Source: an uncultured Candidatus Saccharibacteria bacterium (GTDB lineage Bacteria > Patescibacteriota > Minisyncoccia > Phycocordibacterales > Phycocordibacteraceae). From it: 64,000 nt of DNA. The DNA is taken from the NCBI GenBank assembly GCA_964638585.1, contig CAZXAN010000003.1:30047-94046 (forward strand), in the 5' to 3' direction. Shown one piece after another: positions 52,219 through 55,934 of the stretch (position 1 is its first letter; the number at the start of each line of letters is the position of its first letter). Position numbers and translations under genes: made by a program. The notes under the pieces are model-generated. The model worked only from the letters and a program-made list of their open reading frames with translations, did no database searches and was not told where the DNA came from.

Positions 52219-52566
52219 ATGACAAGAATCAAAGGAGGCATAATGGCGCAGAAACGCCGCAAGAATATCCTAGAGAGAGCCAAGGGCTACCGTGGCATCC
52301 GCTCTAAGAAAGAGCGCTACGCACACGAAGCGCTTATGCGCGCCGGTCGCTACGCCTTCGCCCATCGCCGCGACAAAAAAACAGACTTCCGCCAGCTCTG
52401 GATAGTGCGCTTGAACGCGGCTCTCCGCGATAATGGCCATAAATCGTACTCCACTTTCATAAACAAGCTGAAAAAGTCAGGATTCAAACTCGATCGTAAA
52501 GTCCTCGCCCAATTCGCCTCCGAGCACCCAGAGATTTTTGCCCGCATCGCCAAGCAAGTCGTCTAA
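52219..52566 (+). CDS. rplT: 50S ribosomal protein L20
   Basis: MTRIKGGIMAQKRRKNILERAKGYRG aligns with the L20 N-terminus. Confidence 0.9.
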   Translation: MTRIKGGIMAQKRRKNILERAKGYRGIRSKKERYAHEALMRAGRYAFAHRRDKKTDFRQLWIVRLNAALRDNGHKSYSTFINKLKKSGFKLDRKVLAQFASEHPEIFARIAKQVV

Positions 52567-52594
52567 CAAAAACCGCTCGCAAGGGCGGTTTTTT
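52567..52594 (+). terminator. Intrinsic terminator CCGC-TCGCAAGG-GCGG plus TTTTTTG
   Basis: Follows the rplT stop. Confidence 0.65.
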
Positions 52595-52608
52595 GTTACA
52601 ATCAATCT

Positions 52609-52929
52609 ATGGTAGAAACTCCGAGAGTGCCACAAAAAGGTTTTTATTATCACTACAAGCATGACCCGAGTGGCGCGTTTAATAATTATGCATACGAAGT
52701 CGTTGGACTCGCCCGACATACCGAAGAACAGACTCGGCTTGTCATATACCGACCCTTGTATGAAAACACCTATTTGGACGCTGAAGACTTCTCCGTCCGA
52801 CCGTTAGACATGTTTAACGAGAACGTTATAAAAAACGAAGTTCCTGTTCCACGTTTTTCGCTCATCACAGACCTAGAAATAATTTCTAAGCTCGAAGAAA
52901 TCAAAGCCCGAATGTATCCTGTTAACTAA
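52609..52929 (+). CDS. DUF1653 domain protein
   Basis: GFYYHYKHDPSG...YEVVGLARHTEEQTRLVIYRPLY matches the DUF1653 pattern. Confidence 0.6.
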   Translation: MVETPRVPQKGFYYHYKHDPSGAFNNYAYEVVGLARHTEEQTRLVIYRPLYENTYLDAEDFSVRPLDMFNENVIKNEVPVPRFSLITDLEIISKLEEIKARMYPVN

Positions 52930-53015
52930 ACGAATTTCTTTACAGAATCTTTTGTAATCTCCCAAGATTGGCTGAAGTCGGGAACGACGGTGCGCACCGA
53001 ACTCTTCCGCCAAGC
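52926..53015 (-). pseudogene. Orphan 29-codon remnant of a beta-CASP RNase C-terminus (AWRKSSVRTVVPDFSQSWEITKDSVKKFV*)
   Basis: Homologous to the C-terminus of the intact gene at 53712-55115 (AIVPDFGQSWEITKEAIKRVSVL*). It has an upstream in-frame TAA and no start. Confidence 0.65.
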
Positions 53016-53030
53016 TTATCCCCTATTTAT

Positions 53031-53054
53031 AACGGTCGTATATAATAGCGGATA
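53031..53054. repeat. 23-nt direct repeat ACGGTCGTATATAATAGCGGATA (copy 1, abutting the stop of the 193-aa gene)
   Basis: An identical copy lies at 53651-53673. Confidence 0.8.
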
Positions 53055-53636
53055 TCATTTCAAGCCGAAATGCTCGCGCAAATGCTTGTCGTTCTCTATT
53101 TCCTCAACGACCATATACAACACCGCCGCTCCAATTTTCAGTTCTGCCTTAAGTAAGGCAACGAACTCCTCGCAGTCATATGGAAATACCCACACACTGT
53201 CCTGCAAGCGCATGAAGCCAAGCTCCCGCATCAAAACGCGTAGTCGATCTCGCACCTTGCGTCTCCGTTCTGGTATATCAAAAATAACTACGCGCCATCG
53301 CCCATTCCACCGCCGCTTTTTGGAAAGATCCAATTTATTTTTCTCTAACTCAAATGCTAATTTCTCACGTCCTACGTCGGTGATGCGTGCGTATGCCTTC
53401 CCTTCTCGTTTCTCGAACGTGATGTAGCCGAGTGCTGCGAGCCGCCCGATGGCTGTCCGGTATCGAGCGCGCAGTTGTGCGTGCTTCATGCTCGGGAGTT
53501 TCGAAAGCGCCATAGGGAGAGCTGGCGCCACGGCGGCAACTAATATCACGCCAGAAAGAGCAACTGTCGCGAGGATTGCCTGTTGTATATATCCTTTTTT
53601 CCGCTTCTTTTGTGCTCCTGATTCAACGATTCCCAT
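53055..53636 (-). CDS. Membrane-anchored winged-helix protein with a PaaX-C/Cas2-like domain (putative transcriptional regulator)
   Basis: A basic N-terminus and TM helix, a wHTH (RLAALGYITFEKREGKAYARITDVGREKL), then WRVVIFDIPERRRKVRDRLRVLMRELGFMRLQDSVWVF, which is typical of the PaaX C-terminal fold. Confidence 0.5.
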   Translation of the reverse strand: MGIVESGAQKKRKKGYIQQAILATVALSGVILVAAVAPALPMALSKLPSMKHAQLRARYRTAIGRLAALGYITFEKREGKAYARITDVGREKLAFELEKNKLDLSKKRRWNGRWRVVIFDIPERRRKVRDRLRVLMRELGFMRLQDSVWVFPYDCEEFVALLKAELKIGAAVLYMVVEEIENDKHLREHFGLK

Positions 53637-53650
53637 ATCCTCAATATACC

Positions 53651-53673
53651 ACGGTCGTATATAATAGCGGATA
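53651..53673. repeat. 23-nt direct repeat (copy 2), 14 nt upstream of the start of the 193-aa gene
   Basis: Identical to 53031-53053. Contains TATTATATA on the sense strand, which is -10-like. Confidence 0.8.
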
Positions 53674-53711
53674 GAGCTGAAGGATGAATAGTGTGCATTC
53701 TATAAAACGTA

Positions 53712-55115
53712 CTAAAGTACAGACACTCGCTTTATTGCTTCTTTCGTTATCTCCCAAGATTGGCCGAAGTCGGGGACGATGGCGGTAGCGCCGAGATAGT
53801 CGTGGATGCGCTGGGCGAGGAATCGTTCGGTTGCTGGCTCGCCCATGGCTGTAAAAATGGTTTTTGTACGCCCGCCTGCGCTTGTAAGCGAGGCTTCGGC
53901 AAATTTGAGAAGCTCGTCGCGGTCGGCGTGGGCCGACCAGCCTTCTAGATTCTCCACAGTGGCCCGTATTTCTATATCCCGCCCATTGAGGCGTACACTC
54001 CTCGCGCCCTCTCTCATGCGCCTCCCAGGGCTACCCGGGGCCTGGTAGCCCACTATTATGAGCGTAGAGGCGCTATCAGGCAGATATTTGGACTCCCAGC
54101 CCCCTATCCTGCCACCGTGGCTCATACCGGCGCCAGCGATGATTATCTTAGGCCCAGCAACCTTCTCTATTTCTGCCGAATGGTCGCGAGATAAGGTTTG
54201 TTTAAGAAATGGAAACTTGAATATACTCCCTTCTCTCTTTATCTCATCTTCTACATCTTTTTTAAAATAAGTGGCTCCCCACTTCTCATACACGTCAGTG
54301 ACGTGAATCGCGAGCGGCGAATCTAGATAAACTGGAATTTCTGGAAGTTCTTTTGCAGAAAAAAAGTTAGAGAGCTCGTAGAGCATCAGCTGGGTGCGTT
54401 CTAGCGAGAATGCCGGTATTAGAATAGTGCCGCCTCTTTCTATGGCTCGCCGTAGTGTCTCGCGAAGGCGACTAACGCGTTCAGAATGTTGCGGGTGTAA
54501 TCTGTCGCCGTACACGCTTTCCATGACAATCGCATCTGCATCGGTGATTGGTTCCCAGTCGGGAAGGAGTGGCGACGGGCAGTTGCCGATATCACCTGTT
54601 AATGCGATAGATGTGCCATCAGAAAGGTCCTTAATCCGCACGCTCGCCGAGCCAAGGATGTGACCAGTGTTGCGTAAGTAGACCGATAGTCCCGGCGCGA
54701 CCTCTTTTTCAGTATGATATTCAAGAGTTTCCATTTGCGTAAATGTTTTCTCAACATCTTGCACTTCGTATAATGGCGCGACGCCTCGGCGTCGCGCCTC
54801 CTCGCCCAAGATCCCGACCGAGTCTAGCATAATAAGCTCCGCCAAGTCTTTTGTCGCCGATGTCATATATATTTTCCCGCCAAAACCGTCGCGCACTAAT
54901 TTAGGGAGTCTGCCAACGTGATCCAGATGCGCATGAGTTAGCACGACTGCATCAACACTTTTCACATCATAGTGAAAAGCGCCGTAGATATGCTCTTCAA
55001 CAAAGTCGGCGCCCTGCTCTATTCCGCAGTCCACAACAATTTTCCCGCGTGTGCCTTCTATTAAAAAATTAGAGCCTGTCACCTTCCCTGCTCCGCCATA
55101 AAATGTGAGTTTCAT
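53712..55115 (-). CDS. MBL-fold beta-CASP ribonuclease (RNase J/CPSF-like)
   Basis: Start MKLTFYGGAGKVTGSN, then the HAHLDHVG motif and beta-CASP motifs. The raw ORF's 45-aa N-terminal extension is discarded. Confidence 0.8.
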   Translation of the reverse strand: MKLTFYGGAGKVTGSNFLIEGTRGKIVVDCGIEQGADFVEEHIYGAFHYDVKSVDAVVLTHAHLDHVGRLPKLVRDGFGGKIYMTSATKDLAELIMLDSVGILGEEARRRGVAPLYEVQDVEKTFTQMETLEYHTEKEVAPGLSVYLRNTGHILGSASVRIKDLSDGTSIALTGDIGNCPSPLLPDWEPITDADAIVMESVYGDRLHPQHSERVSRLRETLRRAIERGGTILIPAFSLERTQLMLYELSNFFSAKELPEIPVYLDSPLAIHVTDVYEKWGATYFKKDVEDEIKREGSIFKFPFLKQTLSRDHSAEIEKVAGPKIIIAGAGMSHGGRIGGWESKYLPDSASTLIIVGYQAPGSPGRRMREGARSVRLNGRDIEIRATVENLEGWSAHADRDELLKFAEASLTSAGGRTKTIFTAMGEPATERFLAQRIHDYLGATAIVPDFGQSWEITKEAIKRVSVL

Positions 55116-55132
55116 TTCTCTTACTATACCGC

Positions 55133-55164
55133 AAAAATCCACTCCTTTAGGAGTGGATTTTTGT
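55133..55164. terminator. Bidirectional terminator AAAAATCCACTCC-TTT-AGGAGTGGATTTTT
   Basis: Perfect 13-bp stem flanked by A5/T5 on both sides. Confidence 0.75.
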
Positions 55165-55349
55165 GGAACTGTTCTCTCCGGCAACTTTTTTATGCCAGGT
55201 GGGATAAACAACGACGGCTTTCGGATTCCTTCACAGGCTTCACCAAGCACGTCTTAATGCTATTCTCCCGAGTTAGTATCAAGTTGCGTTTTCAAGAACA
55301 GCTCCACTTATAACTATACACCCTGTGTCAAATTGTCCTGTGGAAAACC

Positions 55350-55934
55350 TCACTCGCCGTTGCGCTTGTAGTTATAGATTTCTTTCTTCCCAAACCAGTG
55401 TTCTATCTCGTGAACAGCCTCTTCTGGTGTCTCTGATGCATGCAATATATTCGCGACAGCGCGTTTTTCTGCGTTGGCAAGCGCTGGCGAATCATTTGAA
55501 TAATCCCCTCTTATAGTTCCCATATCAGCTATATACGGCATTGTTGGTCCACTTATCTTGCGTACCATATCCACCGAGTGAGTCCCTTCAACGACCATTT
55601 TTACTAGAGGAGCCGAAAGCATGTAGTCTACGAGCCATTTGCGAATCTCCGGACCGATTTTTTCTGGCTCTCTCGTGCCGAAGTCAGCTATCGCATCATA
55701 TGAATATTTGTCGTATGTAGCGATTGTTTTCTCACCCAAGCGTGTAATCCATTTATCATCCTTGGGATAATGCTCATCAATCTCTTTGTGCGTAGGCTGG
55801 AACATCTCTAACGCTACAATTTTCAAATTTCTCTGTTCAAAACGTCTTATGACTTCACCTATCAGCCCTTTTTTTACACCATCCGGCTTGATCATTACGT
55901 ATGTCCTCTCTAGTTTTGGATTTTTATTAGCCAT
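55350..55934 (-). CDS. ndk: Nucleoside diphosphate kinase (long form with insertions)
   Basis: ERTYVMIKPDGVKKGLIGEVIRRFE... ; 194 aa. Confidence 0.8.
   Translation of the reverse strand: MANKNPKLERTYVMIKPDGVKKGLIGEVIRRFEQRNLKIVALEMFQPTHKEIDEHYPKDDKWITRLGEKTIATYDKYSYDAIADFGTREPEKIGPEIRKWLVDYMLSAPLVKMVVEGTHSVDMVRKISGPTMPYIADMGTIRGDYSNDSPALANAEKRAVANILHASETPEEAVHEIEHWFGKKEIYNYKRNGE

Follow-up and report, generated by a model that had tools for sequence, protein, structure and literature searches.

How did a small regulator-like gene come to stand between two identical direct repeats and, further out, between two diverged copies of the 3' end of a nuclease gene? The question is raised by a stretch of 64,000 nucleotides (nt) from an uncultured Candidatus Saccharibacteria bacterium (GenBank assembly GCA_964638585.1, contig CAZXAN010000003.1, positions 30,047 to 94,046 of the forward strand), hereafter the window. 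An initial annotation of this stretch, made from its letters without database searches, had described the order A-B-gene-B-A (A, the nuclease 3' ends; B, the repeats) and had proposed either an insertion with recombination between paralogous RNase genes or a mobile cassette carrying a promoter. The explanation that we regard as probable is that the gene encodes an autoregulated, membrane-anchored repressor of the PaaX type with operators on both of its flanks, and that this cassette was inserted at the junction of the nuclease gene and rplT with duplication of the target and was later exchanged horizontally. Two separate phenomena would thus be nested in one another, the B-gene-B unit of a gene family and the A copies as the mark of an insertion. 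The layout is not confined to the window, as it recurs in many related candidate-phyla bacteria. Related loci that were compared with the window genome carry L-numbers below, and the features of the locus are, in the direction of transcription:

53712..55115, minus strand: beta-CASP metallo-beta-lactamase nuclease gene, 467 amino acids from the ATG at 55115 (Pfam Beta-Casp, Lactamase_B and RMMBL).
53712..53794, minus strand: A2, the working nuclease 3' end and left copy of the duplicated target (repeat and gapped alignment to A1).
53674..53711, minus strand: spacer of 38 nt from the nuclease stop codon to B2, conserved only with the closest relative, L015.
53636..53673, minus strand: B2, the upstream dyad of 38 base pairs (bp), a putative leaderless promoter and operator.
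53055..53636, minus strand: PaaX-like gene, 193 amino acids, with an N-terminal membrane helix, a PaaX-type winged helix and a Cas2-like (PaaX_M) domain.
53017..53054, minus strand: B1, the downstream 38-bp dyad, which begins directly after the stop codon.
52926..52998, minus strand: A1, the displaced native nuclease 3' end, a pseudogene fragment and right target copy, ending in VVPDFSQSWEITKDSVKKFV and a stop codon.

The earlier gene calls, a PaaX_M/Cas2-like protein of 193 residues with a hydrophobic N-terminal helix beside a beta-CASP nuclease, were borne out. The protein matched Pfam PaaX_M (PF20803) at 1.2e-20 (73.8 bits, cutoff 24), and its AlphaFold2 model (mean predicted local distance difference test score 74) consists of a long N-terminal helix, a winged helix (helices 48-58 and 62-68, strands 72-85 as the wing) and a ferredoxin-like domain of the order beta-alpha-beta-beta-alpha-beta, i.e., the PaaX_M domain comes together with the winged helix and Cas2-like fold of the PaaX family. 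The top Foldseek match in the PDB was E. coli PaaX (8A39, E=2.4e-4, 132 aligned columns), followed by 3KFW / Rv0674 and then by Cas2 proteins. The ligand-binding C-terminal domain PaaX_C gave no Pfam match, the protein ending at residue 193 after the Cas2-like domain, TIGR02277 scored 46 (cutoff 264.55), and no paa catabolic genes were found among the neighbours of the PaaX-like genes examined. As to Cas2 itself, the Pfam model remained below its cutoff (20.6, cutoff 23.8), TIGR01573 was marginally above it (27.9 versus 24.5) with only 37 residues covered, and the Cas2-like domain keeps the conserved Asp in an FDI motif. Neither cas1 nor a CRISPR array was found in the surrounding genes or in 885 kilobases (kb) of related loci, and the defence-system models gave weak Cas2 matches only. 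We found 803 homologs, of which the best 120 are nearly all 193 amino acids long; most are named Cas2 or hypothetical protein in the databases, and the name Cas2 is likely an over-annotation. No description of this PaaX-like family or of its bracketed architecture was found in the literature that was searched. We also noted a weak sequence similarity (E about 0.2-0.3) of residues 58-100 (53337-53465, minus strand) to AspA, a winged-helix centromere-binding protein of the archaeal plasmid pNOB8 that binds a palindrome upstream of its own operon.

The 23-mer ACGGTCGTATATAATAGCGGATA occurs exactly at 53032-53054 and 53651-53673 (plus strand), as two copies only in the 64-kb window; no further copy was found there even with 3 mismatches, and shuffles expect none. 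The perfect direct repeats that had been described are thus real, with the first copy lying one base from where it had been placed, and they extend to 38 nt at 87% identity (53017-53054 and 53636-53673). One B copy abuts the stop codon of the gene, as had been stated, and the distance of 14 nt between the other copy and the start holds for the identical 23-mer, while the full 38-nt element reaches the ATG. Two B elements were present at each of 25 orthologous loci (orthologs 70-94% identical), and all 50 aligned without gaps in one 38-bp frame with the consensus TATC-N12-CGRYCG-N12-GATA (in B2, TATC at 53673-53670, the core CGACCG at 53657-53652 and GATA at 53639-53636; in B1, 53054-53051, 53038-53033 and 53020-53017, respectively). 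TATC/GATA and the central ACG/CGT were invariant and mutually complementary, and the 3-6 positions beside TATC/GATA were lineage-specific (CCGC, CCCC, CAAA, CACAA or CAAC) and changed together on both sides. The covariation of these outer arms was 0.207 versus 0.103 in shuffles; 0 of 500 shuffles reached 0.207, and slid registers gave lower values. Columns 14-18, between the arms and the centre, were unpaired (37.5% of cells paired), and in DNA folding B2 was no better than shuffled sequence (z=+0.64) and B1 modestly better (z=-2.1). The unpaired arm middles and the shuffled-like folding of B2 argue that B has, as judged from its letters, the shape of a protein-binding dyad and not of a hairpin.

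The two copies of B differ in a regular way. B2 contains an extended -10 (TG at 53651-53650, TATATT at 53648-53643) that stops 7 nt short of the ATG (A at 53636), and TG-n-TA was found in 24 of the 25 upstream copies at a fixed spacing to the ATG, in support of the earlier proposal that the upstream copy contains a promoter, which we regard as likely. B1 has no TG-extended -10, and its outer arms are nearer to a perfect palindrome than those of B2. This is true in general: the downstream copies consistently lack a -10 and have more symmetrical arms, and therefore the upstream and downstream copies are distinct, separately conserved versions. Residues 57-59 of the protein, which lie in its predicted recognition helix, follow the arm type (ARY with CCGC, YQY with CAAA, YRY with CACAA), a correlation that is suggestive only, because it rests on few clades. 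When 885 kb of related loci were scanned for the dyad pattern TATC-N12-CGRYCG-N12-GATA, it was found mostly in pairs flanking the orthologs, or single where the contig or an arm was broken, and the sole hit beyond the orthologs sits just after the stop codon of the family member L046. B is therefore confined almost wholly to the flanks of PaaX-like genes, and the common genome-wide promoter motif that had been considered was rejected, as B flanks only genes of this family in the 885 kb. A target-site duplication was rejected as well (B is not target-derived and accompanies the gene at every locus), and the idea of a mobile promoter was abandoned, since what brackets every ortholog and most family members is a dyad-symmetric, operator-like pair with lineage-specific arms.

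Bracketing by a pair of palindromes is the normal unit of the PaaX-like gene family. Our survey comprised 69 members with both flanks (35-94% identity, many genera of Paceibacteria), and in 53 of these 69 loci the upstream flank matched the downstream flank of the same locus in at least 17 of 20 positions, versus 2 of 69 in the cross-locus controls; with flanks of 400 nt, 41 of 46 distant members exceeded the 95th percentile of the control. The distant members have perfect palindromes of 30-40 bp, the centre of which is conserved as CGRYCG or CTATAG, and the arms of paralogs are unrelated, even within one genome. No conserved partner gene was found beside the family members.

In E. coli, the binding site of PaaX is TGATTC(N27)GAATCA, and the protein represses its own gene at the promoter Px (PMC9493321). 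The locus resembles this system in the winged helix followed by a Cas2-like central domain, in the dyad, which spans 38-39 bp and has short half-sites at a distance of about 27-30 bp (binding is predicted here), and in the overlap of one B site with the regulator's own putative promoter. Unlike PaaX, the 193-residue protein lacks the C-terminal phenylacetyl-CoA-binding domain and is not accompanied by paa genes, it has an N-terminal membrane helix, a second operator-like copy follows right after its stop codon, B has the extra conserved central palindrome ACGRYCGT, and there is no evident target beyond the gene itself.

The A copies tell of the insertion. The repeats at 52938-52990 and 53730-53782 are 83% identical over 53 nt (gapped alignment, 52948-52995 and 53740-53791), a 30-nt degenerate pattern matched the two A sites only in the window and nothing in shuffles, and tblastn found the orphan A1 fragment at 52935-52991 (E=2e-4); repeat search, pattern and tblastn together confirm the two diverged beta-CASP 3' ends of the initial annotation. 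At A2 the nuclease ends in a variant tail, WEITKEAIKRVSVL followed by the stop codon, and A1 encodes the native-type tail, WEITKDSVKKFV followed by the stop codon. The tail is of canonical length in about 93 of 120 nuclease homologs and typically reads WEITKDSVKKI or something close to it, and therefore A1 is the original end, now displaced, of a single nuclease gene. Of the 21 relatives that bear the cassette, 14 have kept A1, and its first codon is much the same in all of them. Part of the related loci was chosen through the nuclease gene and is hence unbiased as to the presence of the cassette. In the cassette-free L090 and L095/96, the nuclease stop codon overlaps the convergent stop codon of rplT and there is no PaaX-like gene, and in L103 only a DUF1653 gene lies between the nuclease gene and rplT. 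These empty sites, together with the A1/A2 duplication, support an insertion into the beta-CASP 3' end. The neighbour in question is, in the window:

52219..52600, plus strand: rplT with its terminator hairpin, the original convergent neighbour of the nuclease gene in cassette-free relatives.

In some relatives the duplication reaches further. The order in L105 is nuclease gene, a 57-nt rplT remnant, cassette, nuclease remnant and rplT, and therefore the duplication around the insert comprised the entire convergent junction; L087 repeats the left half of L105, and its contig ends just past B1. (The rplT remnants lie just upstream of the cassette, at 1439-1501 in L105 and 5297-5359 in L087, and in both loci a 1.2-kb insert with a GrpB gene stands between the nuclease gene and the rplT remnant.) Three copies of the nuclease 3' end with a common central sequence were found in L088 (1790-1830, 3125-3196 and 4012-4083): one belongs to the gene itself, another follows the PaaX-like cassette, and the remaining one follows a gene, on the opposite strand, for a membrane protein of 255 amino acids. 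The centres of A1 and A2 are more alike within genomes than between them (e.g., 51 identical nt in L023; the central codons read QSW/QSW in the window genome and QTW/QTW in L015), and at the edges the window genome and L015 share copy-specific states, which together indicates an old duplication that was homogenised by short conversion tracts. A1 was also considered as an independent small open reading frame and rejected: in-frame starts are not conserved, and in L015, L024, L030 and L088 it is out of frame or startless.

The same mark was found at other genes. The family member L066 (40% identical) lies after recG, and the last 97 nt of recG including its stop codon recur past the downstream palindrome:

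490-590 and 1345-1441 of L066: recG 3'-end copies, across the cassette from each other.

The cassette of L032 and L036 stands convergent to the gene of ribosomal protein L5, and 51-56 nt of the L5 3' end recur upstream. The recG and L5 remnants therefore make A-B-gene-B-A a recurrent insertion signature of the cassette family and not a one-off rearrangement. (Apparent target remnants in L079 and L058 were rejected, as they are the palindromes themselves.) A short duplication of fixed length that abuts the insert, as in transposons, was not found: the A duplications measure 51 to ~120 nt and are separated from B by spacers of 0-40 nt and 38-70 nt.

What was found resembles a known case. The prophage e14 (and phage 21) integrates into E. 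coli icd and leaves the C-terminal pseudogene icdC (PMC13626634). Here too, the insert lies in the 3' end of a conserved gene that keeps working with a slightly different end, a homologous C-terminal fragment stands at the far junction, and recombination between the copies would restore a chimeric functional gene; a 3'-end duplication with a displaced C-terminal fragment is seen in A2/A1 as compared with the empty sites L090/L095, and again at recG and L5. Unlike e14, which is a 15-kb prophage with its own site-specific integrase, the cassette measures about 0.7 kb and holds one regulator gene, and the length of the duplication varies (51 to ~120 nt), some relatives duplicating the 3' end of the convergent neighbour too.

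The cassette and its flanks have different histories. The map, nuclease, infC and PLD genes group the window genome with L087, L088, L091, L024 and L100 (identities to this flank group: nuclease 79-84%, map 84-86%, PLD 80-82%). For the PaaX-like protein, identity is 83-86% to the proteins of L007, L017, L018 and L021 and only 69-73% to those of the flank group, and the bootstrap value of the PaaX-based clade fell from 0.96 in the PaaX tree to 0.00 in that of the nuclease (both by a fast distance method). In a sliding window, identity changed from the flank group to the group of L007, L017, L018 and L021 at ~53720 and back at ~53000, and both A1 and A2 grouped with the housekeeping flanks and not with the cassette. 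The switch points lie at the end of A2 and at A1, and therefore the cassette enclosed by the A copies, together with its putative operators, was exchanged for one from another lineage. That the inner unit is a cassette exchanged between lineages, as had been suggested, is thus supported by the cassette-free relatives, by the conflict of the trees and by the sliding-window switches.

Taken together, we picture the following. The protein would be a truncated repressor made of a transmembrane helix, a winged helix and a Cas2-like dimerisation domain, with a cognate 38-bp operator on each side of its gene. The upstream operator would overlap an extended -10 from which a leaderless mRNA would start at the ATG, and since operator and promoter overlap, a bound dimer would shut off its own transcription. 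The downstream copy, without a good -10, may be a second binding site at the 3' boundary, as a roadblock or a partner in looping. The unit would have been inserted at the convergent junction of the nuclease gene and rplT, duplicating about 60-85 nt of the nuclease 3' end and, in some relatives, the rplT 3' end too; A2 would have remained the working end and gained the variant tail, and A1 would be the displaced native end, which short gene-conversion tracts and recombination with related genomes would have prevented from decaying beyond recognition. In the lineage of the window genome, the segment from A2 to A1 would later have been replaced by a cassette from a different Kaiserbacteria lineage.

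Several points weigh against this explanation. The operator and the leaderless start are proposed from geometry, covariation and analogy. A simple sigma-70 consensus scan found no promoter at the locus, because the putative B2 promoter has no -35 element, and the promoter is therefore called from the conserved TG-n-TAnnnT motif. Phylogeny confounds the correlation of the recognition helix with the arms, two or three clades being involved. The perfect 15-18-bp arms of distant paralogs (fold z=-11 in L044) are longer than an operator usually needs and hint at a role as hairpin or cruciform. The next gene downstream is in convergent orientation in 40 of 61 loci, and therefore the downstream copy is not generally the promoter of the next gene; it has no evident function, and no regulated target was found besides the PaaX-like gene itself. 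The A1 tails are more conserved than one would expect of a dead fragment (L022, L023 and L024 differ at third codon positions), which may be explained by recombination with functional alleles. Finally, no integrase or recombinase was found between A2 and A1, where the PaaX-like gene stands alone; extra cargo within the bracket in relatives consists of NUDIX, GrpB or unknown genes, with no recombinase among them.

The main rival would be much more novel than the explanation we favour, and we consider it unlikely: a self-mobilising element in which the B palindromes are terminal or recombination sites recognised by the encoded protein, possibly together with a host recombinase, the CGRYCG or CTATAG centre is the point of cleavage or crossover, and the A duplications are the footprint of integration at the 3' ends of conserved genes. 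It would fit a gene flanked by two copies of a site found nowhere else nearby, the conserved centre between variable arms (with upstream and downstream copies in inverted orientation at some loci), and the paralogs within one genome, which have different arms, unrelated contexts and no conserved partner gene. Target-end duplications at three unrelated housekeeping loci, the presence or absence of the cassette among close relatives, its ancestry incongruent with the flanks, and the chimeric downstream element of L019, the arms of which are of different types, point in the same direction. The main objections are the variability of the duplications (51 to ~120 nt, with variable spacers to B and no duplication of fixed length at the tips) and the folds of the protein, as we know of no recombinase or transposase chemistry in PaaX or Cas2 folds. 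Besides, neither Cas1 nor an integrase is encoded nearby, no near-identical copies were seen in different contexts, and relatives of the cassette were absent from the viral contigs of IMG/VR; the orthologs at the nuclease site are syntenic over a wide divergence, which fits mostly vertical descent with homologous exchange. Two kinds of known elements are comparable. As in REPtrons (a REP-associated tyrosine transposase, RAYT, with repetitive extragenic palindromes, REP), a single gene is bracketed by palindromes that its product presumably recognises, but the protein is not an HUH/Y1 transposase and the palindrome is not dispersed in the 885-kb scan. As in cis-mobilisable elements flanked by att (attachment) sites, the cassette is bounded by repeats and has no integrase of its own, but no partner recombinase of the att type was identified. 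If such an element were nevertheless at work, and we give this little credence, these would be previously unrecognised mobile or selfish cassettes of Patescibacteria, integrase-less, with a protein that recognises its own bracketing palindromes; they may insert at the 3' ends of housekeeping genes (beta-CASP/rplT, recG and rplE) with duplications of 50-120 nt and spread between lineages by recombination. In a related possibility, the membrane anchor and the locus-specific sites would tether defined points of the chromosome to the membrane.

Cas2 calls CRISPR to mind. The protein shares with it the C-terminal ferredoxin-like fold of Cas2 and the flanking, partly palindromic direct repeats of CRISPR-repeat length. 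In contrast to CRISPR, there is no Cas1, array or leader, the "spacer" would be a gene of 580 nt, the repeats belong with a winged-helix protein whose putative promoter they overlap, and the Cas2-like domain is preceded in the same chain by a transmembrane helix and a winged helix, unlike the stand-alone Cas2 of about 90 amino acids.

Improbable, in our view, is that B acts as a nucleic-acid hairpin, i.e., as terminators, insulators or stem-loops for RNA stability by which a monocistronic gene is set apart from its neighbours. Distant members do have perfect hairpins of 15-18 bp (z=-11 in L044, z=-6.3 in L071), the compensatory changes in the arms are as expected of a stem, the downstream copy follows directly after the stop codon and T runs follow some copies. 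Against this stand the unpaired arm middles in the clade of the window genome, B2 folding like shuffled sequence, and the upstream copy, which would be untranscribed if transcription starts at the ATG; independent hairpins need not keep the same arm sequence on both sides in every genome either. Intrinsic terminators are also unlike B: neither B1 nor B2 has a T run, a terminator scan found nothing at the B elements, and ordinary GC-rich terminators are used elsewhere (e.g., after rplT, 52567-52600). Rfam gave weak sub-threshold matches only, none of them on the B elements, the PaaX-like gene or the A copies.

The earlier reading of the outer copies, a recombination of two paralogous beta-CASP genes with A1 as the remains of the second one, driven by a promoter in B1, is very improbable and was given up. 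It is true that A1 has retained an open frame, closed by a stop codon, and lies immediately downstream of a B copy resembling a promoter, but tblastn found no second beta-CASP gene in the window, and in the relatives examined there was no full second nuclease, the extra copies being short 3'-end fragments beside the cassette only. The cassette-free relatives have one gene abutting rplT, A1 starts at about the same codon across lineages and has the native tail of this single-copy gene, and equivalent remnants of recG and L5 flank other family members. (A cassette-free allele of the same population was not found in the protein database, where nuclease homologs come no closer than 86% identity.) That the repeats arose in assembly or match by chance can practically be dismissed, as six contigs, each assembled independently from a different sample (five Logan runs, ERR3094292-ERR3094302, and ENA ERZ27247830), agree with the window at 100% identity over the 1.5-kb locus, which excludes the misassembly that the initial annotation had wished to see checked, the same architecture is found in other species, and shuffled sequence gives no matches for the B or A patterns.

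Candidate-phyla-radiation bacteria have few recognisable regulators, and their gene control and DNA exchange are little understood. The locus defines a widespread family in them (the 803 homologs, mostly mis-annotated as Cas2 or hypothetical proteins), suggests a protein-site code readable from sequence, with arms that covary with three residues of the predicted recognition helix, and, by the recurrent duplication of host-gene 3' ends and the horizontal replacement, suggests gene movement without a visible integrase. For annotators, the "Cas2" labels are probably wrong, and short C-terminal pseudogene fragments beside such cassettes are to be taken as insertion scars and not as assembly errors.

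Some loci depart from the regular layout. In L019 (4964-5620) the ortholog is not beside the nuclease gene and looks chimeric: the N-terminal part of the protein with the recognition helix is of the CAAA type and its C-terminal part of the CCGC type, and in the downstream element the left arm is of the CAAA type and the right arm CCGC-like. L083 (5001-5225) holds a truncated PaaX-like pseudogene, the last 59 codons (90% identical), with the downstream element kept, its core mutated, and ~2.5 kb of other genes up to the nuclease gene.

The slot between A1 and rplT is occupied in the window by a further gene:

52609..52929, plus strand: DUF1653 gene, 106 amino acids (Pfam DUF1653), between A1 and rplT.

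This gene and A1 converge, with overlapping stop codons. In relatives, DUF1653 proteins are shorter (71-91 amino acids, 36-44% identical), and their genes follow the PaaX-like gene on the same strand; the slot itself holds other cargo in other relatives (a Ser_hydrolase gene in L015) or is empty, and looks like a hot spot of gene insertion.

At the opposite end of this locus, the nuclease frame can be extended to a GTG at 55250 (512 amino acids), which some gene callers chose. The ATG at 55115 is the likely start, because the homologs mostly have 461-463 amino acids, and the 135 nt at 55116-55250 (minus strand) are probably non-coding. The best NCBIfam models of the nuclease were Cas14 of type VII CRISPR (370 bits, cutoff 800) and archaeal aCPSF1 (292, cutoff 580), far under their cutoffs, and therefore indicate family resemblance only. 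Beside the nuclease gene lies ndk (55350-55934, minus strand), which is either 76-85% or only 31-48% identical among the relatives, despite uniformly similar map, infC and nuclease genes in the same relatives; there appear to be two ndk types, perhaps as the result of another local replacement.

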